A DNA stretch of 32,000 nt from Candidatus Iainarchaeum sp. GTDB lineage: Archaea > Iainarchaeota > Iainarchaeia > Iainarchaeales > JACQJH01. The notes below the pieces were generated by a model. That model was not told the origin of the DNA and searched no databases. It was given only the letters and a program-made list of their open reading frames with translations. The translations under genes and the position numbers were made by a program. Below are positions 1,679-31,134 of the stretch, one piece after another. The stretch's first letter is position 1, and each line of letters opens with the position of its first letter. The DNA is taken from the NCBI GenBank assembly GCA_016205145.1, contig JACQJH010000001.1, forward strand, positions 270,001-302,000, read 5' to 3'.

Positions 1679-2032
1679 CTAACGGAAAATTTCGAAGAAC
1701 ATTTCCGACACGTTTTTTGCGCCCTGGCCCATGCGCGAAATGAGGTTCGGCGACTTCCACTTGTGGTGCGAGGGCGCAAACAACCCCTCGCCCGTTTTTT
1801 TGCCCATTTCCCTGAACGACCTGTCAACGAAACCTGTTTTGACGGCTCCGGCTTTCCTTTTCTCCATTTCGGAGACCGTGCCGTGCAGGAGGAACGAGAA
1901 AAAGCCTATGGTGATTTTGAGGATTGCCGCAACTATTCCGAAGACGAACAGCCAGAACCCGAAGACTTGTGCGTTAAGCTGCATTGCAATGAAGCCGAAG
2001 ACGAGCGTCCAGAAAATTGTCGCCCATTTCAT
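1679..2032 (-). CDS. Small membrane protein (2-3 TM) with a basic cytoplasmic tail; last gene of the small-membrane-protein operon
   Basis: 117-aa ORF: MKWATIFWTLVFGFIAMQLNAQVFGFWLFVFGIVAAILKITIGFFSFLL, then a KRK/KK-rich tail. Its ATG (2030-2032) directly abuts the stop of the upstream gene (TGAATG). Confidence 0.8.
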   Translation of the reverse strand: MKWATIFWTLVFGFIAMQLNAQVFGFWLFVFGIVAAILKITIGFFSFLLHGTVSEMEKRKAGAVKTGFVDRSFREMGKKTGEGLFAPSHHKWKSPNLISRMGQGAKNVSEMFFEIFR

Positions 2033-2356
2033 TCAATACCCGCCGGGTCCGCCGTAGCCCCCGCCGCCCATGTCACCGAACATGTCCATTGGATAGCCTT
2101 GCGGCGCACCGGGCTTGTCCCCGGAACCGAAGGCAAGCGCTATGATTATGAGGCTGACAAGGATTATGGGGCCGTATGTCTTCACGTCCGGGAAAAGGAA
2201 GAACGCGCCGAGCATGATGATGACAAGCAGTATTGTCCCGATGGAACGCATTGAAACCACGAGTATGCCGACAACTCCAAGAATCATCCACTGCTGGTTG
2301 AACTGTATGGCAAGCATTATGAGCAGGACGGCAATGATGAACGCGAGCGTATCCAT
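2033..2356 (-). CDS. Small membrane protein (3 TM) with a Gly/Met/Pro/Tyr-rich C-terminal tail
   Basis: 107-aa ORF: MDTLAFIIAVLLIMLAIQF...ILGVVGILVVSM...ILLVIIMLGAFFLF...IILVSLIIIALAF. The tail is GDKPGAPQGYPMDMFGDMGGGGYGGPGGY. It abuts the next gene with no gap. Confidence 0.8.
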   Translation of the reverse strand: MDTLAFIIAVLLIMLAIQFNQQWMILGVVGILVVSMRSIGTILLVIIMLGAFFLFPDVKTYGPIILVSLIIIALAFGSGDKPGAPQGYPMDMFGDMGGGGYGGPGGY

Positions 2357-2389
2357 TCAAATCACTTTTTTAATGCCGCCGCCATTTCA

Positions 2390-2614
2390 TCACGCCATTT
2401 TAGCGAACAATTCCTTTCCGAACGTCGCGAACAAAAATATCACTGCCGGAATCCAGACCAGCTCCGGGAACTGGAAAAACGTCAGGTAAACTACGATAAG
2501 CGAAAAGATGATGGCGAGTTTTGCGCTGCCAAGCTGGCCGCTCGCCCAGCGGAAAATCCACACAAGGTAGACGAGAGTCAGCACCTGAATGAGGTTTGTC
2601 ACAAAGTCAGCCAT
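2390..2614 (-). CDS. Small membrane protein (2-3 TM)
   Basis: 74-aa ORF: MADFVTNLIQVLTLVYLVWIFRW...LAIIFSLIVVYLTFF...VWIPAVIFLFATF. It has the same strand and spacing as its neighbours (33-35 nt gaps). Confidence 0.7.
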   Translation of the reverse strand: MADFVTNLIQVLTLVYLVWIFRWASGQLGSAKLAIIFSLIVVYLTFFQFPELVWIPAVIFLFATFGKELFAKMA

Positions 2615-2649
2615 TTTCCCGCCTTACCATAATTGTGCCGCATCCGGTT

Positions 2650-2985
2650 TTAATGCTGCCCTCCGAGAACCGAACGCACGTTGACCGTTCCCCAGAGTAT
2701 GACCGAGAAGAACCCGAAAGTCCAGAGAATGAACAGCACGTAAACCGATGAGAAGATGTAAACCCATTTTATTGCAAGGAAATATATCAGCACCCCCGAA
2801 ATTATGAGCGACGGCACGCCGGGGCCGAGGAAATTCCTCACTGTCGTGAAGATGACGAGCACGAGTATGAGCCTGAAAACGATGTTTGCCGGAGTGAAAA
2901 AATACATTATTGTCGGCACGGCAATGGCAATGAGCAGCAGGAACAGGAAAACCAGCACGAGCGCGTTGATTCCTTTTTCGTTCAT
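2650..2985 (-). CDS. Small polytopic membrane protein (4 TM)
   Basis: 111-aa ORF, almost entirely hydrophobic (INALVLVFLFLLLIAIAV, FRLILVLVIFTTV, SLIISGVLIYFLAI, VYVLFILWTFGFFSVILW). Its ATG overlaps the upstream stop (ATGA at 2982-2985) and GGAGG lies 6 nt upstream. Confidence 0.85.
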   Translation of the reverse strand: MNEKGINALVLVFLFLLLIAIAVPTIMYFFTPANIVFRLILVLVIFTTVRNFLGPGVPSLIISGVLIYFLAIKWVYIFSSVYVLFILWTFGFFSVILWGTVNVRSVLGGQH

Positions 2986-3317
2986 CTTCTGCCTCCTTCA
3001 TGGCGCATCGGCCCCATCATCGGCATTCCGCCGTGCGCCTGGTCCCCGCTCTGCGGCAGCGCCCAGAACACGTCTATCAAAAACTGCGTCATTCCGAAAG
3101 TAAGCATGAGGTATAGCACGAATATTCCGCCGAAAAACCGCCAGTAATCGAACACCACAAACCAGGAAATGATTGCAATCAGGAGCAATGCCATCGGGCC
3201 TTTTCCGAGGTGGTTGAGTATGAACGAAACGATCGTCATGAGCGCGAAAATCTTCAGCAGGAAGTTCGCGTCCGACAGGAGCTCGCCCAGCAAAAGCAAT
3301 GCCAAATCCGGTTGCAT
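2982..3317 (-). CDS. Small membrane protein (3-4 TM) with a Gly/Met/Pro-rich tail; first gene of the small-membrane-protein operon
   Basis: The track ORF is 2982..3356 (124 aa). I prefer ATG 3317 (MQPDLALLLLGELLSD...). The 13 extra codons (MEIIYSRKTIGNI) are AT-rich promoter-like DNA containing a TATA box 23 nt upstream of 3317. The tail is QSGDQAHGGMPMMGPMRHEGGRR. Confidence 0.8.
   Translation of the reverse strand: MQPDLALLLLGELLSDANFLLKIFALMTIVSFILNHLGKGPMALLLIAIISWFVVFDYWRFFGGIFVLYLMLTFGMTQFLIDVFWALPQSGDQAHGGMPMMGPMRHEGGRR
2992..2996 (-). promoter_or_regulatory. Shine-Dalgarno-like GGAGG for the 111-aa membrane protein gene
   Basis: The minus strand reads GAAGGAGGCAGAAGATGAAC, placing GGAGG 6 nt before ATG 2985, inside the 3' end of the upstream gene. 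Confidence 0.45.
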
Positions 3318-3340
3318 AATATTGCCTATGGTTTTTCTAC

Positions 3341-3348
3341 TATAAATA
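3341..3348 (-). promoter_or_regulatory. TATA-like box (TATTTATA on the minus strand) for the small-membrane-protein operon
   Basis: It lies 23 nt upstream of ATG 3317. A second motif, CTTTTTAATC (3358-3367), directly abuts the giant-1 stop codon (3368-3370). Confidence 0.45.
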
Positions 3349-3367
3349 ATTTCCATTGATTAAAAAG

Positions 3368-6300
3368 TCAGCTTATGCACGTATTCCCGGCTGACAGCCC
3401 CGACTCGAAGCCCTCGACGCTTTTCCCGCCTGCACCATTTTCCTCGAACAGTTTGAGCGCATTCCAGTAGAAAACGCTTTTGTCGCCGGAATCCGAAAGG
3501 CAAACAGTCTGGTCTCCGACCATTCTGAACAGGTCGTTGAGCTCCTGCACCGTGCCATTTGATGCGAGATTGTTTTTCTTCATCCCGCCCAAGCCGTTCA
3601 GGTTCACGGTCGTGCCGGTTTCGCTGTTCATTGTCGTGAACGAAAGCGTTCCGTCTCCTGGAGAAAGCGCCTTCAGCACATAGTTCGAGTTCGCGGGCGT
3701 AAAGACAACGGTTTTGAGGAAAACGTTTCCCTTCTTTTCCGCGCTCTGCCAGTCGACCGCGTAAGCGTTTTCGGCGCCCGGAACCGGGTCCGAGGAATTT
3801 CCTTTCCTGTCGGGCCTGTCCCAGAAAACGTTTGAAGCAAAGTCGCCTGAGAAGTCCTTGCAGTTCGACATTCCGGCCCAGTACGCGAAAACCGTGCCAA
3901 GGGTTTTCGGCTGGCCGGCCTGGAACAACTGGTAGTAGGCCGAGAGCCTGCTTCCATCCGTTTTGTCGGAAGACATTTTCATTACAACCGGTGTTGCATA
4001 ATTCGGCGAGAATGTCATCTCTTTGTCAGTCCCGGTTGCGCGCCTGACTGATAGCAGTGCTCCGCGCGTGTCAGCAAGGCCGTTGATTTTTGCCGGGTCG
4101 GCCTCGATTTTTGTCCTCAGCAATGTCATTGCATCCGAGTTTTCAATCGGCTTTGTTTCGATTATGTCCTGCGAGTTTTCAGTCGAGATTTTCACGGCTT
4201 GGCCGCTGTTCAAATAGTTCAGGCCATAGCCCTGCCTGCCATTGCTTGTGCCGACCCCGACCTTTCCGTCGAACGGCAGATAATAGAATGTCGATTGCGG
4301 TTCAGGATAGCCCTTGTAATAGAATTTCACAAGGATTTTTGCCTTGGGCTTTCCGTCCGGGCCGAAGAATTTCCAGCCGTCGCCGAAGTCGATCCAGGCC
4401 TGTGCGTCATACGTGCCTGCATCGGGCAGTTTGTCGGAGCTTGTAGTGTATTGGAAGTCAAGCCTGTCAGTGTCAGCAAAGTAGTCCGCAAACTTTCCCG
4501 TTCCATCGGAATCGAAATAGCTGGGCGTGTTGTAGAATGTCTTGTGCGCGTAGAATTCCGCGAAATCCTTCTGGAAATCGTCCGAATAACCGTCCCTTAT
4601 CAGGTTGACTCTTGGCCTGAGCAGTTTCCTGAGGGTTTCCTTGTCGGGAACGTGCTCCGTCCAGTTGGGTTCCTGCTGGTCGGCGTTTATGAGTTCTCCG
4701 AATGTTTCCAGGTCGCGGTCAAAGAACGCCTCTACTCCGGAAACTCCGGGCATCACTTCGTATGTCGTGTTCTTCAGCCAGCATTCCTCGTCCGCAGGAG
4801 GGGAAAAATTCCAGAACAGCAGTTGCAGGTTGTCTGTTGAGTAATGCGTTGCGTCGCTTGCCGGCAGTGCGTTCACGAAACCGGGTGCAAACAACGCGTA
4901 TGCAATGAACGGGTGCCCGGATTTTCCCAATGCGTTCCCGTCGAATCCGAGTTCCGCTGAGCTGTTCCTTGCAACGCTGATCTCCTTTTCCTCGTCCCCT
5001 GACACCGCGTTTCCTTCGGTTCCGCGCAAACGGAAATGCACTTTTACTGTCCTGTCCTCCGAAGTCCTGTTGAACACCTCGACCGTGAATTTGAAATTGT
5101 CGTTTTCGTCCTTGTCGTAGCGCAGTCTCTGCAGGCCGATTTTTCCGGCAGGCACGTCCTTTTGGCTTGCAGTGCGGGTGTTTTCCTCGGCCACGCCCTG
5201 CCTTACTTTGTATTCGGGGTTGACCGGGCAAAAAAATACCGGGTTCGCGTCGAAGAATTCGCGCAGGAACTGCATTTTCTGCGTCAATGCAATGCTGAAC
5301 TGCGTTGCGTCGCAGTAAATGCCATCCGGATTGTCTGCATCACAGCTTTCCGCATTGATGTTGTCGCTTCCATCCGTTGTCCACTTCCAGTTGAGGTTGA
5401 CTTTAGGCAAGGCCCCTTCGCCCGTCCTTCCGTTTGCGTTGCATGCGAACACGTTGTTGCTTAACTGAACGGGCTGCCATTGCTGCAATTCCTTGGTTTG
5501 CACGCGGATGTGGAATTTCTGCGAATACGTGCGCGTTGAAATGCCATTGCAGCTTCCCTGTTCGGGCGAATCGCCTATGTTGTATTCGGCGAGCGTTCCG
5601 CTGCTGCATTCGATGTCATACGAGTCATCGCCCGTTCCATGGCTTCCGTTTTCATTGTCATGCCTGAAGTCGCCGTGCACGTGCTCATTCGCCGAGACTG
5701 TGAGGATGCCGTATTCCGGCAAATCCGACCCGTAGCCTTGGTTTGAAAAGTCTATTTCCTGGGTTTCGAATAATCCATCCCGCCCTTCCCTGAAATTCCA
5801 TTCCGGCTTTATTTTTCCATCGAAACCGCTCACAGAAAGCATGTCGTCTGATGTGTCGGGCGGCACTTTCAGCGAAGGGTCTTTCAGCGAGGTCGAGCCG
5901 CCCAGGTTTATGACGAATGCCGGAAGCGTGTTCACTGCATGAACGTCATGGCATGAAAAGAACAGGTCTGCCAACAACATGACCGCAAAGTATGCGATGA
6001 CTCCGATTGCAATGTTTATCGCGAACGATGTTCCAATCGTTGCCGCGGTTGTCCCGCCTGCAAGCGCGGCCGTCACTCCCCCGATTGAAACGCCGAGTCC
6101 GATGGAAAGCAAGGCGGTTACAGTAACGCTTACCTGGATGCTTGTCGCAATCAGGGCGGCGGTTTTAACATAGCTCCTGAACTTTGCCCTGTCAGTGTTC
6201 TGCAAATCCTTCCACACGCAGCCGTCAGCGCGCACCTTGACCTGTTCGATGTACGCGTTGTTGTACAGCGCTGTCTTGTCCTCGCTGCCGGGGAAAACTT

Positions 6301-9300
6301 TCAGGTCGTACCGGTCCATTGAAAAGTAGCCCATGCCCGCCCAAGGCCTGCCGTTTTCCCAGTGCGCCGGGTTGAATACAAGGATATCGTCCTTGCGCAG
6401 TTTTTTGGGCGCCCTTGAAGCGAAATTTCCGTAAACGTTTATGCCGTAAACCCCGGCTATGTCGCGGTCGCCGTCGACCTTTATTGTCTTGTGATTTGTG
6501 TTCGGGCCCGGCACCAGTTCGAAGTCTTTTTCTGACAGGCTCAGGCCGCCTTCGGTTCCGCCTGAGCATCTTCCGTCCTGGTAGCACAGCCTTATCCGCA
6601 CCGGCTGGCTTATGTTCGGGCAGTTTTCAATTGAAACCGTGATTTCGCCGGTGGGATCGAAGAATGGCGTGCCTGGATTGTCGGCGAGTTCGCGCCTGCC
6701 GTTTTCCGGAGAATAGCTGATGCAAGTTGAAAGGTTGACAAGGCTGATTCTTCCGCTGAAATCCCTTGTTGCCTGGGTTTCGTCGAAGCCGTGCTCGGAT
6801 TTTAGCAGGCCGTTAACCTGAATGTCGAATCCCGCATCATTGTTTTCCGCGCCGAGCTTTGAAGTGAAGACAAGGCTTGCGGAAACGCTTTGCCCGGCCG
6901 GAATTTTTTCAAGCACGCCGATGGGCACGTTCGGCGGCAATGCGTACAATCCGATTTCCCTTCCCGTGCCGTCCTTCAATGAAAGTGAAACGTCGCCGAG
7001 ATGGCCGCCGCTGTTGGGCTGGTACGAAAACTTCAATCCGTCCAGGGCAATCGGCGTGCCGTCGATTTCGCAGTTGTTGGTTATGCTGGAGATGTGCCCG
7101 TCGGTTTTCCCGTTGTCCGTGAAGTCAACCCAGTCGGGGTTGTCGATTGAAACGCATGGCGTTGCGGGAACGTCGCCGAGGGAAATCGCAACTTTCAGCG
7201 GCAGTTGCACGTCATAGGTTTTTGCGAACGCCGCGTTCTCGAAAGTGAAAAGCGCCTGGCCGTCCACGCTCTCGTTTTTGGCGATGAGCAGAGGTGAAAT
7301 GATTTTGGTTTTGATTATGCCTGAAACCTCTTTTTCCTCGAGGCCCGCAAGTTTCAGGCCATTGCCGGAGTCCACGCCGGTTTTAGCGCGCAGGAACGAA
7401 AGCATTGAAGTGTAGTCGAGCAGTGCAAAGAACCTGGAATTTTTTCCGGACAGGCCTGCCTCAGCAAGCCCCAGTTCGGCGCCGGAAAAATTTTTCATGG
7501 TCAGGGTTTCCTGTATTATTTCCTCCGTCCTGTTCCGCGAGTTCACGCCTGACGCGAGGCTTTCAGGCTCGAATGCGATTATTTCATCCGAAACCACGAG
7601 CTTCAATTGCGCGTCCTGCCAGTAGCCGATTTTTTCGGCTTCGAAAACAATTTGCGTCGATGGCGAGCTTGCCGGCAGATGGAACACGGCTTTTCCCTGG
7701 CCATCGCTCAGGCAGTTGTTGCCTGAAATGCATGAAAGCATTGTTTCGGTTCCGTCGGCAAGCCTTTTCCTCGCCTTCAACAGCACGTTCTCCAGCAGCT
7801 TCCCCTGGCGGTCTTTCACCGTCACAAGAATGTCTTTTTCCTCGAATGCGTGCAATTTGTCAGGTTCGGCTGACAGGACAAGCGACTCGTTTTTCCTTGT
7901 CCGGAAGCCGATTTTTTCCCTGAACAGTGTCTGTCCCGCGGAAAAGATTTTTGTTTCAAGCGAGTTCGCCTGCACCTTGCTGCCGCGTATCCGCAATTTC
8001 ACGAGCACGCTTTTTCCCTTTGAAAAGTTTGGCAGGGGGATTGCACTTATTTTGGATGCGTTGAAGTTCGCATTTTCGACAATGTTTGACTGCGTGTCAA
8101 GAACAGAATAGCCTTCGATTGCAATGCCGTTGTCCTCCGCGTTCCTGGAATCAACGCTTGAAATTGAAAGCGCGGGCTGTGCAAACTCCGCATCCGAGTT
8201 GTTCCTGATTATGAACGAAACCTCGTATGGCGCGAAAACAATGATGTCGTACGGCGGATCGAGGAAAAGGTTTTCGCGGAGGTCCAAGACTTTTTCGCCG
8301 GCATAGCAGAAATCGGAATCACAGCGGACCAGCACACCTTCCTGGAAATCGCTCAAGTCAAACGTTTTCGCGTACAGCTCTTTTTTTGACGCGGTTTCAC
8401 GCGCGGCCCCCAACTCGGTGTCGGCAGGCATCCTGCTGTAAGAGTCTCCGCTGGCAGTCCACGCCCTGTAATGCATTGGCAGCGGCGAGAACGCGGGCGT
8501 GGAACTTTTCACCACGACTTCAAAGCCGGCTTCAGCCACCATTTCTTTTCCGTCCGGTGCAAACCTTGCGTTCGCCCATTTTCCGGGCATGCCTGTCTGC
8601 GGCACGGGATTTTCCGCATCAGTGCCCGCCGGAGGATTGTAAGCTGCGCCCTTTTCAATTGCCGCGTTTCCTATGTCCACTGCGCCTACGAAAAGGTTTT
8701 CGCCGGCAATTCCTGCCTGGTCGCCTGCCCTGAAATGGACGCCGGCGCCTTCAACGCCTGCGGGAACGCTCAGGCGAAACAATGCAATGTACGAATGGCC
8801 TGCTTCCATTGCATTGCTTTGCCTGTAATTGTCAAGCATTCCAATGAATTCGATTTTTGGTCCGGCAATGCCGCCTTGCAGTGGCAGTTCGCCGGAAAAT
8901 TCCGCCTTGGTGTTTGCGAAAAGCGTTTTCGGGATTGTCGTGAAAGAAACATGGCCGGGCGAGGTTATGACCACAAAGGCTTTCTGCCCCGCCCTTATTT
9001 TCTGCGAAGCCTTTCCGTTTGGCAGATCAAATTTTGCAATGCTTTCTCCGAGCATGTTGAAGAATTCGGCCTGCGAGTTTTGGAGCGGCGCGCCTTGTTC
9101 ATCAGTTGCCTCGATTTCAACATCGGCATCGCCTATGACCAGCCTTACCCTGAATTCGTTCAGCTCCTTTTTCAGGATTTTTTTGGCAATCCCTTTCGGC
9201 GCGGCGTATGCCTGCGCCTTGTACGCCGAAGGGTAAAGCGTTTCCTCTTTCACTCCCGCCCACAATGCAACGCCGTTGGCGTCGGTTGAACGCGCGGGAT

Positions 9301-10831: not shown

Positions 10832-10846
10832 ATAATGGGCATTCGG

Positions 10847-10862
10847 CTATAAAAGTTTTCTC
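10847..10862 (-). promoter_or_regulatory. BRE/TATA-like promoter of giant 1 (GAGAAAAC-TTTTATAG on the minus strand)
   Basis: TTTTATAG (10847-10854) ends 15 nt before ATG 10831 and 33 nt before ATG 10813. The purine-rich GAGAAAAC lies immediately upstream. The AAACTTTT core is shared with the box at 31143-31156. Confidence 0.5.
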
Positions 10863-10919
10863 GCACGCGCTTTCGATCGCGTGTGCCGAAACTAAGGCGT
10901 ATTGCTACGGCAATACGCC
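10862..10919 (-). terminator. Two-hairpin 3'-end element, copy B (candidate terminator downstream of giant 2)
   Basis: The minus strand reads GGCGTATTGC-CGTA-GCAATACGCC (perfect 10-bp stem, 10896-10919), then TTAGTTTCGGCA, then CACGCG-ATCGAAAG-CGCGTG. It starts 57 nt after the giant-2 stop, in sense orientation. It is homologous to copy A at 1610-1664. Confidence 0.5.
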
Positions 10920-10976
10920 GAGTAAACTATTGCAGAATTAAATGTTTCCGGGGCGTGCGAGTGGCAGAGTTCCCTA

Positions 10977-20738: not shown

Positions 20739-20749
20739 TCCCTTTCACG

Positions 20750-20757
20750 ATTTTAAC
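20750..20757 (-). promoter_or_regulatory. TATA-like box (GTTAAAAT on the minus strand) upstream of giant 2
   Basis: It ends 11 nt before TTG 20738 and 17 nt before TTG 20732. A second AT-rich candidate (ATTAATAAAAG, about 20790-20800) lies further upstream. Confidence 0.35.
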
Positions 20758-20831
20758 GCCGACCGATTAACCGGTATTATTCTTGTCGTTTCTTTTATTA
20801 ATACCTTTTCTTTTTTTTAACTTTTCCTGTT

Positions 20832-21338
20832 TCACAGCGAAGCCAGCGCTTCAAGCGCCGGAAGTATTTCGTCGCCTTCAATTGCCGCGGTTATTGCAAC
20901 TATGGTTGCCGGGAGGATTATGCCAAGAAAAATGATTGCCGCGATTGCCATGATTATTTTTTTGTTGAACGCGAATGCGTTTTCCTTTCCCGTCATGTCC
21001 TTGTGCAGGAGTATGCCGATTGTCGCGCCGGTCTTCAAGCTTAATGCAAGCGGCAGCAGGAGGAGCGCGGCCGCGGGCTGTTTTGCAATAACCGGCCCCA
21101 TAATCATTCCTATTGCAATCGCCACGACCGGCGAAAGGTAGCCGAAGAAAAGAACCGACAGCACGAGTGCGGCGGCGGACAGGAGCAGGGTCTGGATTAT
21201 CATGTTGCCCTTGAACGGCATTGCGATCGAGGTTTCAAAAAAAATTGCGATGGACAGGCCGAGCAGCAATGCGAGCATGCTGATAAGGAACAGGACTTTT
21301 GTTTCCGGCGGCAACCTGCCAGTTTCCAAAAAAACCAC
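20832..21338 (-). CDS. Polytopic membrane protein (4-5 TM) encoded between giants 3 and 2
   Basis: 168-aa ORF with a GTG start: VLFLISMLALLLGLSIAIFF, MIIQTLLLSAAALVLSVLFFGYLSPVVAIAIGMIMGPVI, AAALLLLPLALSL, IIMAIAAIIFLGIILPATIVAITAAI. It lies 47 nt after the giant-3 stop and 93 nt before the giant-2 start. Confidence 0.85.
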   Translation of the reverse strand: MVFLETGRLPPETKVLFLISMLALLLGLSIAIFFETSIAMPFKGNMIIQTLLLSAAALVLSVLFFGYLSPVVAIAIGMIMGPVIAKQPAAALLLLPLALSLKTGATIGILLHKDMTGKENAFAFNKKIIMAIAAIIFLGIILPATIVAITAAIEGDEILPALEALASL

Positions 21339-21385
21339 TTTTTTCCGTTAGGCTTTTTCCTTATTTGATTAAATCATTATCGGCC

Positions 21386-24300: not shown

Positions 24301-27300
24301 ATTGGAGTTCCTGGGTTGTCCTGTTGTTCGGGCCCATTTTCCTGGCTTCGTCTATGAAATAAATCTGGCTGACAAGCGGGCATTTGCCTTCGTCGGGCTG
24401 CTGCACGGCTTCCTGCTGGCCGGTCTGCTTGTTTGTCTGCGTCTGGGTTGCCTGTCCGGTTGTTGCCTCACTCGGCACGTCGCAGATGAATGACAATGCT
24501 GATTCGTCTGTCGGCACCCTTATGCCCATGTCGTAGCAGTAATTGATTATCTGCACCTTGACCGGCGTGCCGAAGAATCCGGAAAAGTCTATCTTGTTCG
24601 GCGGCATGAGCTTGAGGCAGTCGCGCGCCTGCGCGGAAATGTCTCCTTGCGGCCTGGTGAAAATCTCGACATCCTGCACTTTCACGAACCTGTCCTCGGT
24701 TTCCGCGTTCCTCGCCTTCACTTCTATGTTGAACCTGCCGAAAGTGTAGCCGGCCTGCACCTTCAAATCCTTTGAATCGTCTTTCGACACGACAAACGAT
24801 GATTCCGGCACCTGTATTTCGGCGTCCGCTTCAAGCTTTATTTCAACGTCGTTTCCGCAGTTGTTGGTTATCCTGAACCTGTCCGAGCCGAAGGGATTTA
24901 TTCCATAATTGAAGGAATTCGAGAAAGCCTGATTCACTGGCGTTCCGCCGTAGAATGCCCCGCCGTACATGCTTGAAGGGTATGCTCCGACAGGATACGG
25001 CGAGTAGGCCTGCGTTCCGCCGTATGCCCCGGTTGCGTTCGGCGAACTTGCGCTTGTGGTGCTGAAAGTGTTGTAGCCGTACGCATACTGGCTTGCAGGA
25101 TAGGGCGTCTGGTAGCCTGCCCCTGACTGGTAACCATATCCGGCGCCCAATGCGCCTGAATAGGCGTTCGGGTTGTAGCCGTAGCCCTGGTAAATGCCAT
25201 AACCGAGGTTTGGCGGGGAAGCGATTATCTGCAACTGTGTCGGCTGGACTTTCACGCACTTCGCGAGATTGCTGATTCCCGCGTCAACGGAGAGCACAGA
25301 ATAAATCTGTTCCGTGCCGTTTTCCGTTGGATTGGATGCCCTCAATATTATTTTCGGCGACGCGCTTGCCGAACTGATCTTTTCGTTCGGCTGGAACGCA
25401 AGCTTTATTTCCACGGCCGAGTTTTTCTGCATGTTCGCAAAAACCGTCTGGAACTTTTCGTCCAGGGGAATGCTTATCCTGCCGAAGCCTTCCTGTTCAG
25501 TGTAGCCTGTCGGGCTTTCGGCGTCAAGCCTGAACGTTCCAATCTCGTCCTGGTTTTCCCATGAAACTTTTGCGGAAACATTCTTGAGGTCGATTGCCTG
25601 CTGCTCCACTTTGCAGTTGTTTGTCACGGTGACAGTGAGAGTTTTCTGCTCGCCTGCCGTTGAAATTTTCCAGCTGTTAGGGTCGACTGCAAGGCAGGTT
25701 GCGCTGTCAACGGTTTTGCCCAGGCTGATCCTGACTTCGATCGGCACGGCCTGGACCCATCTTTTTCCGAGGTCCTTGTTTGCGAGATAGATTGACATTG
25801 CGCCTGAAACCACTGTATTCTTTGTCAGGCCATAGGCTGCGTCGGCCAGTTCGATTGAAATGGAAATGTTGGAATCCTGGTCCGGCAGGAACAGTGTCTT
25901 CTTGTAGTCCTTGCCCGGCTTGACAATAAGGTACTGCGACAGGCCAGCGGAAAACTGGATGTCTTCGACTTCAAGCGGAATCTTTGTGAAATTCTCCACA
26001 AGCACGGTCGGCTCCGCTGACGGCATCTTTGTGAGGTTGAGTTCCTGCTTTATTTCAGGCGGCGAAATCCTCAGCAATTGGCCGGAAACCGTGAGTTCGG
26101 TTTGAGCCGGCCTGTAGCCCTGCTTTTGCGCTGTTATCGTGATTTTGTCGTTCGCGTTCGGTGATGGCAGCAGGGCATCAATTGTCCCGTTCCTGTCGGT
26201 TTGGCCTATCGCAATTGTTTTGCCGTTGCTTGCCACGCCGACAACCGCGTTTTCTATGGGCGCATTGTCCTCGCCTGAAACCTTCACAAGCAGCTGGTTG
26301 TCAATGAATGGCACGAGCTGCTTCGGCAGGACATCGATGTTCAATGTTTTCGCTTCCGGAACATTGACGATTATCGTTTCGCGCAGTATCTCCGCGTTGT
26401 CGGATGATTTGATGATGAGGATTATCGCATTGTCCCCCTCGCTTTTCGTAGAGAACCTGACTTTGCCGCTGACAACCGAATCCTGCTGCAATGTTCCGAT
26501 TCCGTTTTCAATGTCCGATTGCGCGGTTCCGGTGAACGCCTGTCCGAAAGCGTCGGTTATCGAATAATCGCCGAGTTCGAGGCCTTCGCCCGAAATGACC
26601 ATGCCGGAGTTCGCATAGGTCTGCCTTGAAATGCTTGAAACCGTGAAGCTGAACTCGTATTCGGTTGAAAGCTTCGCTGAATAACTGTCAATGACCTGCA
26701 CCTTGGATTTTTCCGCAAGGTCTTCCATGAAAAGCGTTTTGCAGAAACTCTGGTTGCAGAGGTTTGTTGGCCCGACGCTCAGCACTTTCTGCTTTGCGTT
26801 CGCGTACAATGCAAGCTTTTCCGCGGAGTTCAGGCTTTCTCCAAGTTCCTTGTCGACCGGGTCCCTGATGATTGATCCCCTGACACCATAGCCGCGGTAC
26901 CAGAATTCAAGCAAATCGCCTTGTGCCGCGGTCGAGCTTACCAGCAGTTCGACGTTCGCCTCGTAGACGCCGCTTTCGGCATTGCGCCAGACAACGTTCG
27001 CCCATTTCGCGTCGCCGGTCGTGATTTTTCCGGCGTCGGTTGCCTCGCCTTTCGGCGGAGTGTACGACGTGCCCCTGACTGTCGTGCCGGCTGTTTCAAC
27101 GCCTGAAATCAGTATGCTGTCCTCTTCCATTATGTTCTGCCTGCCGGCAATGCTTTTTCCGGTGCGCACGTGCAGGCCGGCTTCGCTGTAGCCTGAGCCT
27201 TTGGGCACGAGCAATTGGACTTTTGCAATGTATCTTTGCCCGGGCACGATGTTGGATTCCGAGCTTTCGTTGTCAAGCGTGAAAATTCCCGCGACATTCG

Positions 27301-29131
27301 CCTGCAAGGCTGGAACGCTTTTCACCATTGTGACGGTTTTCTGCACCGTGACTCCGGCAAGCGGCTTTATCGGCACGGTATTGTATTTCAGATAGTTTTC
27401 GGCTTCAACTGAAATGAACGGCTTTTTGTCAAGGCGCACGCTGGCCGTTGCTTCGCCCGCGCTGTCAGTCTGCGATTCCTCGAGCGTTGCCCCGGTTTCA
27501 AGGTCAATTGCCTTCACTGCCGCGTCCGGCAAAGGCTGGCCCTGGCCGTCCAAAACTTTGACGAGAATGTCGCCGAAGCCGATGTCAAGCGTTATCTGGG
27601 TCTGCGCGGGCTGCCTTGCCTCGATTGTTATCGGCGAAGAGTTTTTCGGCTCAAAGCCTGCCTTCACAGCTTCGACGAAATACGTGCCCGGCTCGATCCT
27701 TGCGAACGAAACGGTTCCATTCGAGCCCGTCACAAGCGGTTTTCCCGCCGGCGAACCGTCGTTCCTTTTGAGAGTTGCCTTCACGTTGTCCACCGGCTGG
27801 CCCGTGCTGTCGACTATGCTGACTGAAAGCGAACCCGAATTGGTTTCCGTTGCCTTCTGCAGTTTGACTTCGATTGTCTGGTCGGATGGCTTCACGTTGC
27901 TGAGGCTTTTCAGAATGTATTCGGGGTGGTCAAGCTCTATATAGTATGAAACGTTTTCCGAAACATTGATGGTTGCCTTTCCGTCGCTTCCGGTTTTTGT
28001 CGTGCCAAGCACCGGCTCGGAAGCGCTTTTCTTGAGCCTCACGTTCACGTTCTGCACCGGCTCGTTCGTTGCGGAATCCTTTACAATCAATGAAATTGTG
28101 CCGGCAACGCTGCGCTTCATCACGACGTCAAAGCTTATCGACTGGTTTGGCAGCAATGGCTTTGCGTCGCCTGAAGGCGTCTGGTTTGCCTGAAGGTAGG
28201 TTCCCTGCGGGTCGAATGCAGTTATATAATATGTTCCCGGTGGCACGCTGGCGAAAGAATATGTTCCGGCTGTGGAAGTGTAGCCTTCCTGTATGGCAAA
28301 GTTGCCTTCGGTCTCGCTTGTGAGCGAGAGCCTTATGCCTGCGATGGCGCCGCCGTTTTCATTCCTGGCGAAAACATTGACTGTGCCTGTTGCCGGCTCT
28401 TCGGCCTGCAACTGGATTCTTGGCGCGGGGTCTGACATGCTTATGCTTGCGTTGCTGCCCGAATATTTTCCAAGCGGGTCGACAAGAAGGATGCCGCAGT
28501 CGCTTGGCACATTGGGAACGTCGATGACGCCGGTCTGCGTTGACAATTGCGTGTTGAACGCGGAGTTGCCGGAGCAGGAAAATCTTGCGGTGATTGTTTC
28601 GCCTGAAACCAGTTCGTTGGTGTTTGCGTTGACGAACTGCACGGTTTTCGTTGAAGTCGTCACCTTGCTTTGCAGGCTGATAGTTTTTTCGGAAGAACCG
28701 TCAAATGTTATTGATTCCCTGCCGTCATTGTAGCCGGGCTGTGAGGCGCTTACAACAACGGTTGCGCCGCGCCTGCCTTTCAGCGCGTATTCCCCGGCAT
28801 CATTTGTTGTTCCGGTGGTTTCACCGACAGCACCGTTCTGCCATTCAAAGTTCAGGGTTGCGCCGGCAATGCCTTCTCCGGACTGCGCGTCAAGGAGTTT
28901 TATCGTGGTTGTTTCCTGCGGTGAAACCGCGGGGAGAACCAAAAACCAGCCGATCAGGCCGAGTATGAGAAGCAAAAGGATTATTGCGATGGGGAAGCTT
29001 GGTATGCCGTTTTTTTCAAGCGCGTCAACCGCGGAATAGACCGGAACGCCCTTGTTGTCAAGCCAGTCAAGGAAGCCATAGTATTTTTCTTCAAGGTGAA
29101 TGTAAAATTCCTTCAAGCCCATCGGATTCAC
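21386..29131 (-). CDS. Giant membrane-anchored surface protein, paralogue 3 (2581 aa)
   Basis: Uninterrupted 7.75-kb ORF. The track start is GTG 29131; ATG 29122 gives MGLKEFYIHLEEKYYGFLDWLDNKGVPVYSAVDALEKNGIPSF followed by the TM helix PIAIILLLLILGLIGWFLV. It has about 6 beta-sandwich repeats, a shared middle region (AGLHVRTGK, EFWYRGYGV, NLCNQSFC, C...NNC pairs) and a ~105-aa Tyr/Gly-rich low-complexity hinge. The divergent C-terminal module includes NFCDAVQNMVSL, LIADGYSQGLVDDFASEY and LRLPFDGKLGGNRRTGYG. The tail is T/P/A/Q-rich. Confidence 0.97.
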   Translation of the reverse strand: MNPMGLKEFYIHLEEKYYGFLDWLDNKGVPVYSAVDALEKNGIPSFPIAIILLLLILGLIGWFLVLPAVSPQETTTIKLLDAQSGEGIAGATLNFEWQNGAVGETTGTTNDAGEYALKGRRGATVVVSASQPGYNDGRESITFDGSSEKTISLQSKVTTSTKTVQFVNANTNELVSGETITARFSCSGNSAFNTQLSTQTGVIDVPNVPSDCGILLVDPLGKYSGSNASISMSDPAPRIQLQAEEPATGTVNVFARNENGGAIAGIRLSLTSETEGNFAIQEGYTSTAGTYSFASVPPGTYYITAFDPQGTYLQANQTPSGDAKPLLPNQSISFDVVMKRSVAGTISLIVKDSATNEPVQNVNVRLKKSASEPVLGTTKTGSDGKATINVSENVSYYIELDHPEYILKSLSNVKPSDQTIEVKLQKATETNSGSLSVSIVDSTGQPVDNVKATLKRNDGSPAGKPLVTGSNGTVSFARIEPGTYFVEAVKAGFEPKNSSPITIEARQPAQTQITLDIGFGDILVKVLDGQGQPLPDAAVKAIDLETGATLEESQTDSAGEATASVRLDKKPFISVEAENYLKYNTVPIKPLAGVTVQKTVTMVKSVPALQANVAGIFTLDNESSESNIVPGQRYIAKVQLLVPKGSGYSEAGLHVRTGKSIAGRQNIMEEDSILISGVETAGTTVRGTSYTPPKGEATDAGKITTGDAKWANVVWRNAESGVYEANVELLVSSTAAQGDLLEFWYRGYGVRGSIIRDPVDKELGESLNSAEKLALYANAKQKVLSVGPTNLCNQSFCKTLFMEDLAEKSKVQVIDSYSAKLSTEYEFSFTVSSISRQTYANSGMVISGEGLELGDYSITDAFGQAFTGTAQSDIENGIGTLQQDSVVSGKVRFSTKSEGDNAIILIIKSSDNAEILRETIIVNVPEAKTLNIDVLPKQLVPFIDNQLLVKVSGEDNAPIENAVVGVASNGKTIAIGQTDRNGTIDALLPSPNANDKITITAQKQGYRPAQTELTVSGQLLRISPPEIKQELNLTKMPSAEPTVLVENFTKIPLEVEDIQFSAGLSQYLIVKPGKDYKKTLFLPDQDSNISISIELADAAYGLTKNTVVSGAMSIYLANKDLGKRWVQAVPIEVRISLGKTVDSATCLAVDPNSWKISTAGEQKTLTVTVTNNCKVEQQAIDLKNVSAKVSWENQDEIGTFRLDAESPTGYTEQEGFGRISIPLDEKFQTVFANMQKNSAVEIKLAFQPNEKISSASASPKIILRASNPTENGTEQIYSVLSVDAGISNLAKCVKVQPTQLQIIASPPNLGYGIYQGYGYNPNAYSGALGAGYGYQSGAGYQTPYPASQYAYGYNTFSTTSASSPNATGAYGGTQAYSPYPVGAYPSSMYGGAFYGGTPVNQAFSNSFNYGINPFGSDRFRITNNCGNDVEIKLEADAEIQVPESSFVVSKDDSKDLKVQAGYTFGRFNIEVKARNAETEDRFVKVQDVEIFTRPQGDISAQARDCLKLMPPNKIDFSGFFGTPVKVQIINYCYDMGIRVPTDESALSFICDVPSEATTGQATQTQTNKQTGQQEAVQQPDEGKCPLVSQIYFIDEARKMGPNNRTTQELQFEIKPDISYRKQAILMLKGQTFRQLGQLRLFLQTGFYRIEVRADAKVTFFDQLGSERTESYFRVLEDKFAAGEFLDALEEPGSDEKNFQNCINKDALNTKQYYINLGHSLGVIPQEEFDKGNGKVFQFTPEKRNQVLIIKDAQHPNGCGTIDRLSDIRPLTWRDSKTGLALSFAITDDKHNITMFIDRSGLKTLCADVEKPVQAKLTRVQVPETQGVGLPAIVRVLHESVQPEDITEEFFETCATTPVEGKPTGEETPTPTPPGGGLLAKKDYFACSQQIEGAHTGDAYYTEAYFNRLLFDWSFGAVKKNVCDVPKKVGTETWNTGAGQNFCDAVQNMVSLTKKQKEIEKAIGSLQKNGCIGETSGICLQTNTKNLFRFSVRQRPVTDNAVSPAKKLVFFVGSGGTILESRSRLPAEVSDAKSQLDKLDPPTVGNALTYLGIMETLIREIEKNAPERKDNIVAEIETIGLTEEDNAILESVLKADKPPAKFPTYVATFNEFKAFHQKIREKVGNAATIAQVTVDGKNIDYRFLQRLLKNISFRIGIRNNEKISEEDRLWLMQFSDLWKLYYENIDTETNLIADGYSQGLVDDFASEYAAETTGMNVKPAGSRWNFKTLSAEGIELPNTNIETGRHGQFINYDWTARTVTVELTKLQSIEEIDTSSGKFAANNLLLRLPFDGKLGGNRRTGYGTSVKGAGSPIRLVFNSADSLVNVFSGSGGLKSLKGRLGSAFADTKDGVLIDISSTDFKFNPSVDTELQLEVVPEKGKGKAFYELFDGTQEVESENLLTWFGGRKPVADAVTQDVSQYCSNASGSAKNHSIETDNSTPILTSFVFVPWNKEFLFRLYCAAAQATAAGTADNSLATIGKEYQFTNPRQIRVNEKGQAEDASIKAVIDKIASGEACVVQATKTRLKIAWNKTLPERAQIEETQTAANTQAGTQTGAQQPAGSSAPKTTPPATGGTTAPAAPK
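21389..24890 (-). other. C-terminal module of giant 3, a divergent and longer version of the module in giants 1 and 2
   Basis: Same order of recognisable motifs as in giants 1 and 2, but with much lower identity and extra segments such as a Q/T-rich stretch TGQATQTQTNKQTGQQEAVQQ. Confidence 0.5.
24890..25220 (-). other. Tyr/Gly/Ala/Ser/Pro low-complexity hinge of giant 3
   Basis: PPNLGYGIYQGYGYNPNAYSGALGAGYGYQSGAGYQTPYPASQYAYGYNTFSTTSASSPNATGAYGGTQAYSPYPVGAYPSSMYGGAFYGGTPV. There are no charged residues over about 100 aa. Confidence 0.8.
27340..28915 (-). repeat. Intragenic tandem array of carboxypeptidase-regulatory-like/Ig-like beta-sandwich domains (giant 3)
   Basis: Examples: GTVNVFARNENGGAIAGIRLSLTSE...GTYSFASVPPGTYYITAFDPQG, GTISLIVKDSATNEPVQNVNVRLKK, GSLSVSIVDSTGQPVDNVKATLKRNDG...GTVSFARIEPGTYFVEAVKAGF, GDILVKVLDGQGQPLPDAAVKAIDLETG. 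Confidence 0.65.
28922..29131 (-). other. Conserved N-terminal box plus signal-anchor TM (giant 3)
   Basis: See the alignment in findings. Confidence 0.7.
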
Positions 29132-29159
29132 TTGTTCACTCTATCTGCGCAGTTGGCCA

Positions 29160-29167
29160 TATTATTT
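29160..29167 (-). promoter_or_regulatory. Candidate TATA-like box (AATAATAT on the minus strand) upstream of giant 3
   Basis: It ends 28 nt before GTG 29131 and 37 nt before ATG 29122. Other AT-rich candidates are at about 29180-29188 and 29252-29259 (TTTAAATA). I cannot choose between them from sequence alone. Confidence 0.3.
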
Positions 29168-29331
29168 CCTGCTTTTCAATATATTAAGCTTTCCATGCAA
29201 AGCCGCCCGGCCGGACCAATTTCTCTTTTGATTATGTTAAAAGTGTTATGATATTTAAATGCTTTTTGTTGCGCGTTTGCGGTCAGGATATTTTTTTTGC
29301 CGGTTTTTTTTGCCCGCCTGGAAACTTTTTT

Positions 29332-31134
29332 TTATCCTGGCACGCACTTTGGGGTTGCAAGGCTTAATCCGCCAGGCTGCGGTTCCACTGAATAGCAGTG
29401 CCACTCCGCCGTCGTTGCATCGCATGTTCCGGGCGCGGCGCCCGGCGGCCGGATGAAACAGCTTGTGCCGTCTGAAACCGGATGGAACTTTCCGGTAAAC
29501 GGATGATATGTGTTGTCCAAAAGCCTTATCCTGAAAATGAACTCGTTTTGCTTGTCGACCTTGTACGTTGAATTGTTTTCCTTGAATGCCAGCGTAACCG
29601 AAACGCTTTTTGCCTTGGCGCAATAAGCTTTTGTTTCGTTGTAACCCGTTGGCGGGGAAGCAGACGGCTCTATGTTTGCGCATGCCGCATCAGATTCCGA
29701 CAGCGGCGTGAAAGCGCTTTTGCCTGTTGCCGGGTCCAGGAAAATTCCGAAGCCGACGTTCGCGTGCGGCCCGACCTGCTCTTCGAACGGGCATACTCCT
29801 GCAGAATTGCCGGAATATGCGTAGGTTCCCGTTGCCGGGGGCGGCAGAACATTCGGCGGCTCATTATTGAGCTGGGTGATTTTTTTTGACGGCATGGCGC
29901 TGATGTCCACGGCAATGTCATTGAGGACAGCGCAGTCGGCTCCTTCAATCTGTCCCGGCGTTGCACCGGCTGTGCTGGGCACAAGCTCAAGGCCTGCCGC
30001 GATGTCCGGTGCGCCCGGAAGCGAGGCGGCAAGCCGGGCATTCGACTGCGCGATTTTGCACACGCGCCTTTTCACCATCGTTGTTATCCTCTGCCGCAGA
30101 TCGGACTGGTTGGACTGGCTTGCAGGATAATTGAAATTGTCGTTTGGGTCTGAGGCATTGCACATTCCGCGCTGCTGCATGTCCGGCGTGCACGGCACGG
30201 TTATGTTGCCTGTGAAACAGCTGCTGCCCGGAGTGCCCGCAATCCTGTCGGTTTGCGGCGCAGTGAAAGGGTTTGTGCGCCAGTTGCAAACGCTTTCATC
30301 GCACATCCCCAATTGAATCTGCTCTATTTCATTGTGCACGCGCGGCGAAAACAATCCGAAATCCGCGCCGGTGTTGTCCTCGCCGTAATCGTGCGCAAAA
30401 CTTTTCGCGATTGCTATTGCCCTGAAAATCCTCAGTGGAACGTAAATCTTGAAATTGGTTCTCGGCAAAATCGATTCCTTGCGCACGTTGCCCCTGCCGT
30501 CCGACACCACTATTTTTGGAAGGCTTTCGAATTCCGCGTCCGTAAGCCCTGACATGTTGAGGTTCACGTAAAACGTGCCCTGCCCGCAGTCATCCGGGTT
30601 TCCGTCAGGGCAGCCGACGACGCTGAAAAAGTTTCCCGCGTTCACGCTGTTCCTCACTGCGGAGGCAAGAACCGGTTTTGTGGAATCCGCGTTGCCTTCC
30701 AGGCTTATCGCATATTCCGCGAAAAAGCTTGGAGTAGATTCAAGCAATACCTGCAGATCGTTCGCCATGAAGTCGACAAAGCGCGTGCTTGTCGCGTCGC
30801 CGAAATTCGCCCTTGCGAAATCCTGCTGTATTTCCTGCCACGACCTGTCTTCCAGGTTCAAGGTGTAATAGTTTGTAGGCGAGGAAAGCCAGTTTGAAAT
30901 CGTCTTGCGCAGAGTGTAATTGAAGGACTGCAGTGCATCCGCCTTCACAAGGTCAGTGACTGCCTTCAGCTCGGCCTGCGTCTGTATGTTGGTTATGTTC
31001 TGCTGCGCGTTCCTTTCGGTTTCAATCATGCTGTTGACGAGCAGCGCCGCCAGGAGGATGAGCATGAATGACAGCAGGGCGGTGAAAAGGTTGAATGCTC
31101 GCTGGTTCAATTGCAAAACCGGAAAGATTAACAC
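29332..31134 (-). CDS. Cys-rich secreted or surface protein (600 aa) with an archaeal class III (type IV pilin-like) signal or N-terminal anchor
   Basis: The N-terminus is ..LQLNQRA/FNLFTALLSFMLILLAALLVNSMIETE, with R at -2, A at -1 and then a 22-residue uncharged hydrophobic helix. The mature part has 16 Cys, often in close pairs (GCPDGNPDDCG, MCDESVCNW, SSCFTGNITVPCTPDMQQRGMCN, TSCFIRPPGAAPGTCDATTAEWHC). The track start is GTG 31134. TTG 31116 or 31110 would give the short prepeptide MQLNQRA or MNQRA and fits the TATA spacing better. Confidence 0.9.
   Translation of the reverse strand: MLIFPVLQLNQRAFNLFTALLSFMLILLAALLVNSMIETERNAQQNITNIQTQAELKAVTDLVKADALQSFNYTLRKTISNWLSSPTNYYTLNLEDRSWQEIQQDFARANFGDATSTRFVDFMANDLQVLLESTPSFFAEYAISLEGNADSTKPVLASAVRNSVNAGNFFSVVGCPDGNPDDCGQGTFYVNLNMSGLTDAEFESLPKIVVSDGRGNVRKESILPRTNFKIYVPLRIFRAIAIAKSFAHDYGEDNTGADFGLFSPRVHNEIEQIQLGMCDESVCNWRTNPFTAPQTDRIAGTPGSSCFTGNITVPCTPDMQQRGMCNASDPNDNFNYPASQSNQSDLRQRITTMVKRRVCKIAQSNARLAASLPGAPDIAAGLELVPSTAGATPGQIEGADCAVLNDIAVDISAMPSKKITQLNNEPPNVLPPPATGTYAYSGNSAGVCPFEEQVGPHANVGFGIFLDPATGKSAFTPLSESDAACANIEPSASPPTGYNETKAYCAKAKSVSVTLAFKENNSTYKVDKQNEFIFRIRLLDNTYHPFTGKFHPVSDGTSCFIRPPGAAPGTCDATTAEWHCYSVEPQPGGLSLATPKCVPG
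31033..31107 (-). other. Putative class III signal peptide cleavage region and hydrophobic pilin-like helix
   Basis: QRA|FNLFTALLSFMLILLAALLV fits the [KR][GAS]|hydrophobic rule used for archaeal prepilin peptidase substrates. There is no Glu at +5, which argues against a bacterial type. Confidence 0.45.

Follow-up and report, generated by a model that had tools for sequence, protein, structure and literature searches.

What kind of structure, if any, is encoded by a run of giant genes followed by very small membrane-protein genes on one strand of an archaeal chromosome is the question raised by positions 270,001 to 302,000 of contig JACQJH010000001.1 (assembly GCA_016205145.1, Candidatus Iainarchaeum sp.), a stretch of 32,000 nucleotides that is hereafter called the window. 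Its proteins are recorded as MBI4052681-88 of a Candidatus Diapherotrites archaeon metagenome-assembled genome (MAG); the source is groundwater, and the same population is present in runs SRR12113384 and SRR12113385. A preliminary description, drawn up from the letters of the sequence alone, had proposed an uncharacterised cell-surface system of a small-genome archaeon, and its guess at the organism holds as regards lineage, which is that of a DPANN archaeon (Candidatus Diapherotrites, or Iainarchaeota). The eleven consecutive minus-strand genes that it listed between 1679 and 31134 are real, since a six-frame listing of open reading frames (ORFs) returns all of them with the sizes given, and the two tight junctions that it reported, an ATGA overlap at 2982-2985 and a TGAATG junction at 2030-2035, can both be read in the sequence.

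Judged by sequence comparison, the window is most of a chromosomal locus of ~40-45 kb, peculiar to the DPANN phylum Iainarchaeota (Diapherotrites), which is conserved gene for gene and occupies about 3% of a genome of ~1.2 Mb. That the locus encodes a dedicated cell-surface system is quite likely; the fuller reading, in which a phylum-specific apparatus of several subunits carries giant proteins on a base of small membrane proteins and contacts other cells, stands at about an even chance. The count of three giants has to be raised to four, here called A to D, of which the window holds the tail of A together with complete B, C and D; the gene previously placed on the flank as a peptidoglycan amidase is probably the tip of giant A, and thus a part of the system. 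The bounds drawn earlier have likewise to be widened, as the locus reaches past the window and has an archaeosortase-family gene at its head in five of six other genomes. The components found in the window are as follows.

1679-2032, minus strand: s5, 117 amino acids (aa), two transmembrane helices, the tail hydrophilic and basic; it begins directly at the s4 stop codon (TGAATG); present in 51 loci.
2033-2356, minus strand: s4, 107 aa, three to four transmembrane helices and a C-terminal tail rich in Gly, Tyr and Met; present in 51 loci.
2390-2614, minus strand: s3, 74 aa, three transmembrane helices; the most conserved component.
2650-2985, minus strand: s2, 111 aa, four transmembrane helices; its start overlaps the s1 stop (ATGA).
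2982-3356, minus strand: s1, 124 aa, three transmembrane helices, a paralogue of s2 and s3; it begins 11 nt past giant D.
3368-10831, minus strand: giant D (giant 1 of the preliminary description), 2487 aa; N-box 10625-10816, middle module 6701-8866, C-module 3371-5539.
10977-20738, minus strand: giant C (formerly giant 2), 3253 aa; N-box 20562-20738, middle module 16803-18899, C-module 11022-13043.
20832-21338, minus strand: m168, a variable accessory membrane protein of 168 aa with four to five transmembrane helices, recognised by hydropathy and positional homologues.
21386-29122, minus strand: giant B (formerly giant 3), 2578 aa; N-box and transmembrane helix 28925-29122, middle module 25223-27304, diverged C-module 21497-23494.
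29332-31110, minus strand: pilin-like Cys-rich protein, 592 aa from TTG 31110, the start that agrees with the family N-terminus; the ORF (600 aa) opens at GTG 31134.
31300-32000, minus strand: C-terminal end of giant A, running off the right end of the window, with Amidase_2 at about 31420-31740.

The conservation of this arrangement was followed from the C-terminal module (C-module) of giant D, a search with which returned nine homologues, each named one archaeal; on two of the nine homologue contigs five small genes come after a giant, and then a divergent coiled-coil gene and a HerA-like gene of ~510 aa. A scan of GTDB, using one genome per species, a C-module alignment as query and tblastn for confirmation, then yielded 150 confirmed C-modules in 65 loci, nearly all of them labelled Iainarchaeum or unclassified archaeon, including the complete AR10 genome and Ca. 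Iainarchaeum andersonii. When the protein families were mapped by local hidden Markov models (HMMs) onto the fetched loci (numbered with the prefix L), one order recurred: giants in tandem, all built of N-box, middle module and C-module; s1 to s5 on the same strand; a coiled-coil gene (cc) on the opposite strand; the HerA-like gene on the same strand; and a second coiled-coil gene (cc2) on the opposite strand. The s1-s5 cluster follows the last C-module in 41 of the 49 loci with enough downstream DNA, and among the eight exceptions five have another giant downstream, L069 keeps s1 and s2 without s3-s5, and L009 and L047 are without the cluster over the next 10 kb. The linkage is kept through an inversion (L061) and through insertions (L051, L060). 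The proposal that these genes travel together, which would lose its ground if homologues were never syntenic elsewhere, is borne out, because the order of giant and s1-s5 recurs in those 41 of 49 informative loci of other Iainarchaeota species. A full HMMER search of 1.84 billion representatives found the C-module in 821 clusters, and the top 150 of these are all giants or fragments of giants with the module at the C-terminus, the four with a name being three Diapherotrites and one carrying a Micrarchaeota label.

Foreign genes are also seen inside some of the loci. Pairs of toxin-antitoxin type lie at 3356-4160 of L001 (UPF0175 and DUF3368 by Pfam), 4184-4916 of L011 and 2160-3464 of L028, the latter two judged by sequence, and a gene of the AAA_14/DUF4143 type is inserted in L070, where the insertions span 9396-9932 and 11740-12951. 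The order of the locus components is undisturbed by either kind of insertion.

The depth of this conservation can be read from the median pairwise identities across loci, which are 53% for PolB, 53% for s3, 38% for s4, 31% for s5 and 34% for the HerA-like protein. Moreover, the giants keep their places: compared between loci, the C-module of a last giant is most similar to that of the other locus's last giant in 39 of 41 cases, that of the second-from-last giant to its second-from-last in 24 of 28, and C-module orthologues score above paralogues of the same genome in 54 of 56. In the window, the giant D C-module, which ends in NTCIS, has its best matches among the last giants of other genomes, and that of giant C among their second-from-last giants. 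Because of these positional best matches and the excess of orthologous over paralogous scores, the comparison indicates that the giant paralogues predate the radiation of the group and hold their positions, being ancient, non-interchangeable orthologues and not recent copies. Fixed positions are as expected for distinct subunits of one structure, and not for a variable adhesin repertoire.

The head of the locus is known from six other genomes (L070, L071, L089, L090, L091 and L092), in which the order is archaeosortase-family gene where present, giant A, pilin-like gene, giant B, m168 where present and giant C, the last being seen in five of the six. Since L070 shares its contig with L037, and L071 shares one with L027, two of these heads can be joined to tails of giant C, giant D and s1-s5; from the head order and these joins, the window can therefore be read as pilin-like gene, B, m168, C, D and s1-s5.

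Could such a block be held together by nothing more than inherited gene order? On this explanation, independent adhesins and unrelated small membrane proteins would be neighbours by descent, with no dedicated machine, and we regard it as unlikely, though it has several observations in its favour. The block runs on beyond s5 through the coiled-coil, HerA-like and second coiled-coil genes to PolB, which stands past cc2 in 19 of 19 loci (e.g., L001 8641-11073), and often to methionine aminopeptidase (MetAP) too; toxin-antitoxin pairs and other genes have been inserted between components without destroying it; and each giant has a TATA-like upstream region. Against these stand the gap of 11 nt between giant D and s1 and the overlapping or abutting genes of s1-s5, which are operon-like, and the persistence of the order at ~53% PolB identity, where prokaryotes have usually lost their gene order outside operons. 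The paralogues, moreover, are fixed in number and position and do not vary as an adhesin repertoire would, and all giants have one N-box in common.

As to transcription, the window shows negative AT skew everywhere to the right of about 3 kb, in keeping with minus-strand coding over that part. TATA-like elements (CTTTTATAG, TTTAAATA and TTAATATA) and GC-rich hairpins were read by eye in the intergenic stretches 10832-10976 and 29123-29331, upstream of giants D and B; from their position the giants may have promoters of their own, with s1-s5 carried on the giant D transcript.

The giants themselves are built on one plan, consisting of an N-box of ~45 residues, a single hydrophobic helix and then 2,400-3,200 residues of Ig-like repeats and family-specific modules, the last part of B, C and D being the conserved, Cys-containing C-module. 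The paralogy of these three, as described before, is confirmed by BLASTP at E 1e-55 to 1e-91 across the N-terminal 1300-1600 residues. In addition, the C-terminal ~700 residues of D and C match at 31% identity (E 1e-77), giant B being weak there, and the N-box is ~50% identical between paralogues that overall share 23-26%. A Kyte-Doolittle scan, crude as it is, gives one N-terminal helix for each giant. The ORF of giant B extends over 21386-29131 (2581 aa), its start being probably ATG 29122, and the protein has six CarboxypepD_reg repeats (E 1.5e-38). Giant D contains a hydrophobic segment of ~70 residues rich in Gly and Ala (5948-6163, aa 1557-1628), and across loci a hydrophobic segment before the tip is found in 32 of 48 last giants versus 11 of 56 other giants. 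N-x-S/T sequons occur at ~1.0 per 100 aa in the modules versus 0.36-0.43 in the HerA-like protein and PolB, and Cys makes up 1.65% of the C-module; sequon density and Cys content weakly fit an extracellular location.

No specific part of these proteins could be placed in a named family, in agreement with the preliminary description: Pfam, NCBIfam and PHROGs gave no match for the small proteins, the N-box, the middle module, the C-module or the 600-aa protein, and the sole Pfam matches of the giants are generic Ig-like repeats (CarboxypepD_reg, Big_1, SpaA and fn3). Profile searches thus place no specific module in a known adhesin or S-layer family; placement of all parts in such families would have told against a new system. 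Searches of PDB profiles with the C-module and the middle module returned nothing past Ig/MG-like domains, and Foldseek with the C-module model returned only a beta-sandwich of ~100 residues common to GH3 enzymes, at a TM-score of 0.1.

Several smaller features of the giants were observed along the way. The last giants from L005 to L069, to which the giant D C-terminus at 3368-3385 corresponds, share a conserved end, (A/E)G(Q/E)(S/T)C-I-G-Y-G-S, and most giants of the last two positions have a Cys within the final six residues (37 of 41 for the last, 21 of 28 for the second-from-last); this near-terminal Cys could be a disulphide or modification site. Directly before the transmembrane helix, every giant has P-[SA]-F, in the forms VPSF, MPSF, IPSF and PAF (10640-10660, 20580-20600 and 28940-28960 in the window; giant A of L070, L071, L089 and L090). 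A role for it as a PGF-like sortase motif was rejected, since an intracellular N-terminus would leave the motif on the cytoplasmic side. In L002 (= L036), a free-standing ORF of 70 aa (1961-2173) placed ahead of s1 and after the last giant consists of N-box and transmembrane helix only, which suggests that the box and its anchor are an independent module. The window has a GC content of about 0.53, except for a dip within giant C: it falls to 0.47 at 14000-16000 (giant C aa ~1580-2245), with very strong AT skew, inside an insert specific to giant C that holds fn3-type domains and weak Y_Y_Y and pilus-N-like matches. This lower-GC insert may be a later domain acquisition.

The small membrane proteins next to giant D are polytopic as first described, a Kyte-Doolittle scan giving two to four hydrophobic helices each for s1-s5 and four to five for m168. 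On two contigs (L001 and L002), s1-s5 have one-to-one orthologues in the same order, most at 31-59% identity and s5 the lowest at ~22%; the s1 orthologues at the same position are 42-45% identical, and s1 is present in 55 loci. The first three members, s1, s2 and s3, are paralogues of one another. By comparison with the cluster, m168 is variable: homologues of 155-159 aa follow giant B in L070 (HMM 7e-7) and L092 (BLASTP 1.9e-4), L091 has a positional analogue, and L071, L089 and L090 have none.

At the other end of the locus, giant A measures 2547-2894 aa in six other genomes, with an N-box and without a C-module. The gene that the window cuts off beyond the pilin-like gene could be followed on a Logan contig, L004, which includes 2.8 kb of giant A and in which it encodes at least 929 aa with an Amidase_2 domain (E 4.4e-29) and a weak Glucosaminidase match of 21 bits, below the cut-off. 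Since residues 195-482 of this amidase-bearing protein match residues 2498-2829 of the giant A of L071, near its C-terminus (BLASTP 3e-14; phmmer 7.9e-9), the amidase is most likely the C-terminal end of this organism's giant A. A metagenome scan with the giant A tail as query found only generic Amidase_2 domains on unrelated contigs.

Immediately ahead of giant A and in the same orientation, five of the six other genomes carry an exosortase/archaeosortase-family gene of 180-223 aa, at the following positions.

L070 479-1081: archaeosortase-family gene.
L089 597-1160: archaeosortase-family gene.
L090 428-1099: archaeosortase-family gene.
L091 670-1212: archaeosortase-family gene.
L092 278-826: archaeosortase-family gene.

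The L070 protein matches TIGR04178 at 32.5 bits (cut-off 23), those of L089-L092 have precomputed PF09721 matches, and the Cys, Arg and His motifs are intact (LCTG/LCSG, NxxRI and HNxLFR, or HxxLFR) in proteins that are 32-59% identical to one another. Exosortase and archaeosortase protein-sorting systems reportedly have dedicated adjacent targets, as set out by Haft et al. in 2012, and the present locus resembles them in that the enzyme gene adjoins giant A in those five genomes. It differs in that no locus protein has a motif, transmembrane helix and basic tail in succession and the giants are anchored at the N-terminus; moreover, the enzyme gene lies outside the window and is known from related loci only. 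The last and second-from-last giants have hydrophilic C-termini across loci.

A second explanation, about as improbable as inherited gene order, is that the locus encodes the ordinary envelope of Iainarchaeota, an S-layer-like or glycocalyx coat with no specific role in cell contact. The locus seemingly occurs throughout the phylum in a single copy with a constant set of subunits, and Ig-like domains abound in its ectodomains, a trait of many S-layer proteins of archaea. The archaeosortase-family gene at the head points the same way, given that the haloarchaeal archaeosortase ArtA processes the S-layer glycoprotein. However, the anchor is N-terminal, no signal of PGF-CTERM type is present, and a peptidoglycan amidase on giant A would be useless in an archaeal coat; nor do the locus proteins match any S-layer family of Pfam or NCBIfam. 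A survey of S-layers also gives Iainarchaeota a separate S-layer protein of 1039 aa, A0A2G9N319 (10.1101/2024.05.28.596244 supplement), proposed for the phylum, which would argue against a coat made by this locus.

The pilin-like label given to the 600-aa protein fits both its family N-terminus and the long N-terminal helix of its model. Its gene most likely starts at TTG 31110, giving a protein that opens with MNQRAFNLFTAL, and the family consensus of 54 members, MNxxG/FNLFTALVSFxLIxLAVLL, is matched in the window by MNQRA/FNLFTALLSFMLILLAALL from that start. The N-terminus has the features of a class III signal, namely a short charged leader, Gly or Ala at -1 and then a hydrophobic alpha-helix, the single one that a Kyte-Doolittle scan detects. 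An AlphaFold2 model from 54 sequences (predicted local distance difference test, pLDDT, 85.5; predicted template modelling score, pTM, 0.83) shows a helix of 74 residues (residues 11-84) and a large mixed head. The label of Cys-rich is equally apt, at 2.65% Cys in the 600-aa protein and with eight Cys columns invariant or nearly so within the family. The 69 homologues are 350-670 aa long, most 500-630 aa, and all those with an organism name are Diapherotrites or unclassified archaeon; the gene stands between giants A and B in all six of the other genomes in which the head is known. The resemblance to archaeal type IV pilin-like proteins (pilins, archaellins and sugar-binding proteins of the bindosome) extends to the leader, Gly or Ala at -1, Phe at +1, a hydrophobic helix of ~20 residues and a modelled 74-residue N-terminal helix that carries a globular head. 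Unlike in those proteins, the head comprises ~500 residues without a pilin match: Foldseek found no match to the model in PDB or BFVD, the best PDB hit having E 0.29, with no pilin among the credible hits.

Beyond s5, two neighbours fall partly or wholly within the window, and their membership in the system is uncertain.

1-838, minus strand: N-terminal 279 aa of a HerA-like protein, running off the left end; a conserved neighbour.
921-1580, plus strand: acidic coiled-coil protein cc, convergent with s5; present in 42 loci.

The HerA-like gene lies downstream of s5 in all 26 loci with enough sequence. Its description as a homologue of the HerA-like NTPases was right as to homology, for the family profile matches PDB HerA 4d2i (E 0.0019) as well as 7f6d and YjgR, Pfam DUF87 is found in 8 of 29 members (AR10 at 24.3 bits, cut-off 23.2) and HerA_C in one (9e-7). 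The NTPase part of the description needs correcting: the Walker A position reads GGxxxDRxH, is unconserved and has no conserved Lys-Ser/Thr, and the HerA segment EEAH aligns with LPE, so that the Walker B acidic pair is replaced. By these alignments the neighbour is a true, distant relative of HerA that has lost Walker A, and it is probably non-catalytic. Compared with ATPases of the HerA/FtsK superfamily, including Ced, it shares the matches to HerA structures and DUF87 and differs in the Walker A GKS/T, the replaced Walker B pair and the absence of an adjacent NurA. The gap between cc and s5 is 3-158 nt in most loci and 0.7-2.5 kb in six, and in six genomes unrelated genes lie between s5 and cc. 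Because the HerA-like gene adjoins the cluster no more constantly than PolB, which is conserved past cc2 in 19 of 19 loci, its membership cannot be separated from general synteny, and the trio of HerA-like, cc and cc2 may belong with replication or repair genes and not with the surface locus. The N-terminus of cc (921-1040 and orthologues) was seen to hold a conserved helical domain of ~45 residues, VVLETIKKMxDSGxDDxxIxxTLxDIGLSEEEI, with no family match.

From the pilin-type N-terminus of the 600-aa protein and the constant presence of a HerA-superfamily neighbour, one might construct a transporter resembling a type IV pilus, a type IV secretion system (T4SS) or Ced/Ted, in which the HerA-like protein is the motor, the small proteins are channel or pilins and the 600-aa protein is a pilin. 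A weak NCBIfam CedD match at the P-loop region (E 0.0037) and the general likeness of small proteins with two to four transmembrane helices to CedA1/A2 or VirB2/VirB3 lend it some support. It is nevertheless very unlikely, because the CedD match reaches 16 bits against a cut-off of 600, the would-be motor has GGxxxDRxH in place of a conserved Walker A and LPE at the Walker B position, and neither s1-s5 nor m168 matches a Ced or any other NCBIfam or Pfam model. At the same time, the HerA-like gene forms a separate transcription unit, with the unrelated genes noted above intervening before s5 in six genomes, and genes of PilB or PilC type are missing from those called in the fetched loci.

An integrated virus, plasmid or defence island, suggested by a large locus of mostly unknown-function genes with toxin-antitoxin modules inside it in some genomes, is hardly credible, as PHROGs and PADLOC gave coiled-coil noise only, the locus occupies the same chromosomal position beside PolB in every genome checked, no boundary marked by a tRNA, an integrase or a repeat is present in the window (scans for tRNAs, Rfam families and tandem repeats were empty or trivial) and GC stays at ~0.53 throughout except for the giant C dip.

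Among known giant proteins, the bacterial Ig-repeat adhesins LapA, SiiE and MpIBP have dedicated export genes for a type I secretion system. They are like the present giants in being Ig-repeat proteins of several thousand residues encoded beside membrane proteins that could serve them, but the giants have no RTX repeats or C-terminal secretion signal, ABC, MFP and TolC genes are absent (there were no HemolysinCabind or ABC matches in giants or neighbours), the anchor is an N-terminal helix, and four fixed paralogues take the place of one adhesin. Giant proteins called SPEARE have reportedly been described from Nanohaloarchaeota by Hamm et al. in 2019. These, and the giants of Omnitrophota, resemble those of Iainarchaeota as very large, mostly extracellular proteins of small genomes, some with wall-degrading or attachment domains, for which the giant A amidase may be compared; they differ in sharing no domains past generic Ig-like folds and in being single genes, not a conserved array with small membrane partners. 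The Omnitrophota genes, implicated in cell-wall degradation, are moreover far larger single genes whose products have many transmembrane helices and SecA-like domains (10.1101/2023.11.21.568195). For every known system tested (type IV pili, archaeosortase-target pairs, S-layers, RTX adhesins, Ced/T4SS and HerA ATPases), the locus falls short in one or more defining features, and the open-access literature searched yielded no account of it.

The multi-subunit apparatus, to which about an even chance was given above, could be assembled as follows. The giants would be signal-anchored with the N-terminus inside, so that the N-box would be cytoplasmic and the C-modules would lie at the far ends of long fibres or spikes on the cell surface. 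A dedicated membrane base made of s1-s5, with m168 where it is present, would insert or hold the giants through their N-boxes and transmembrane anchors, and the paralogues s1-s3 may pair with the three giants that have a C-module. The archaeosortase-family enzyme, in those genomes with its gene at the head of the locus, would process one component. The apparatus would contact other cells, with the distal end of giant A bearing the peptidoglycan amidase; bacterial walls are suggested as the target, because an archaeon without murein could use an amidase only there. The hydrophobic Gly/Ala-rich segment just ahead of the giant D tip module, which could enter a membrane, likewise points to bacteria. 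Contact with bacteria is put forward tentatively, as less probable than the apparatus itself. In its most elaborate form, the proposal is of a four-giant machine for contact or penetration, in which giant A opens bacterial peptidoglycan, the same segment of giant D enters the membrane of the partner, and archaeosortase and pilin-like protein complete the assembly; this form is unlikely.

Several observations weigh against the apparatus. In L009 and L047, a C-module giant is followed by ~10 kb of downstream sequence with no s-cluster. The conserved block takes in PolB and MetAP, so that gene order is generally stable here and synteny alone is no proof of functional coupling. The topology comes from a hydropathy scan of a crude kind, and the C-module model is of medium quality (pLDDT 66). 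The link between amidase and giant A is one local match at 26% identity, to which the giant A of L070 adds none, and the amidase fusion is found in this organism only among the genomes examined. No locus protein has a canonical C-terminal archaeosortase signal, the ends of giants A and B and of the L089 pilin-like protein being hydrophilic. Finally, PilB/FlaI, PilC/FlaJ and prepilin peptidase are absent from the called genes of L001, L002, L070, L071 and L089-L092, with their precomputed Pfam matches, and from the conserved ORF families of the 65 loci, a result obtained without a gene-by-gene scan and without a search of whole genomes.

Little is known of the means by which DPANN archaea fasten on other cells and exploit them, and the literature searched yielded no culture of Iainarchaeota. 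If the locus is a contact apparatus, then the giants, the pilin-like protein and s1-s5 would be concrete targets for study, and the amidase tip would point to bacterial partners; if the four-giant machine were true, bacteria and not archaea would be the hosts or prey of Iainarchaeota, and the locus would represent a new class of archaeal surface nanomachine. The locus also offers new domain families, an N-terminal box for sorting or anchoring and a possible non-canonical relationship between an archaeosortase and its substrate. Its conservation gene for gene, with s3 as conserved as the replicative polymerase and with no known relatives or folds for its specific modules, points to a core, lineage-defining structure of the Iainarchaeota.

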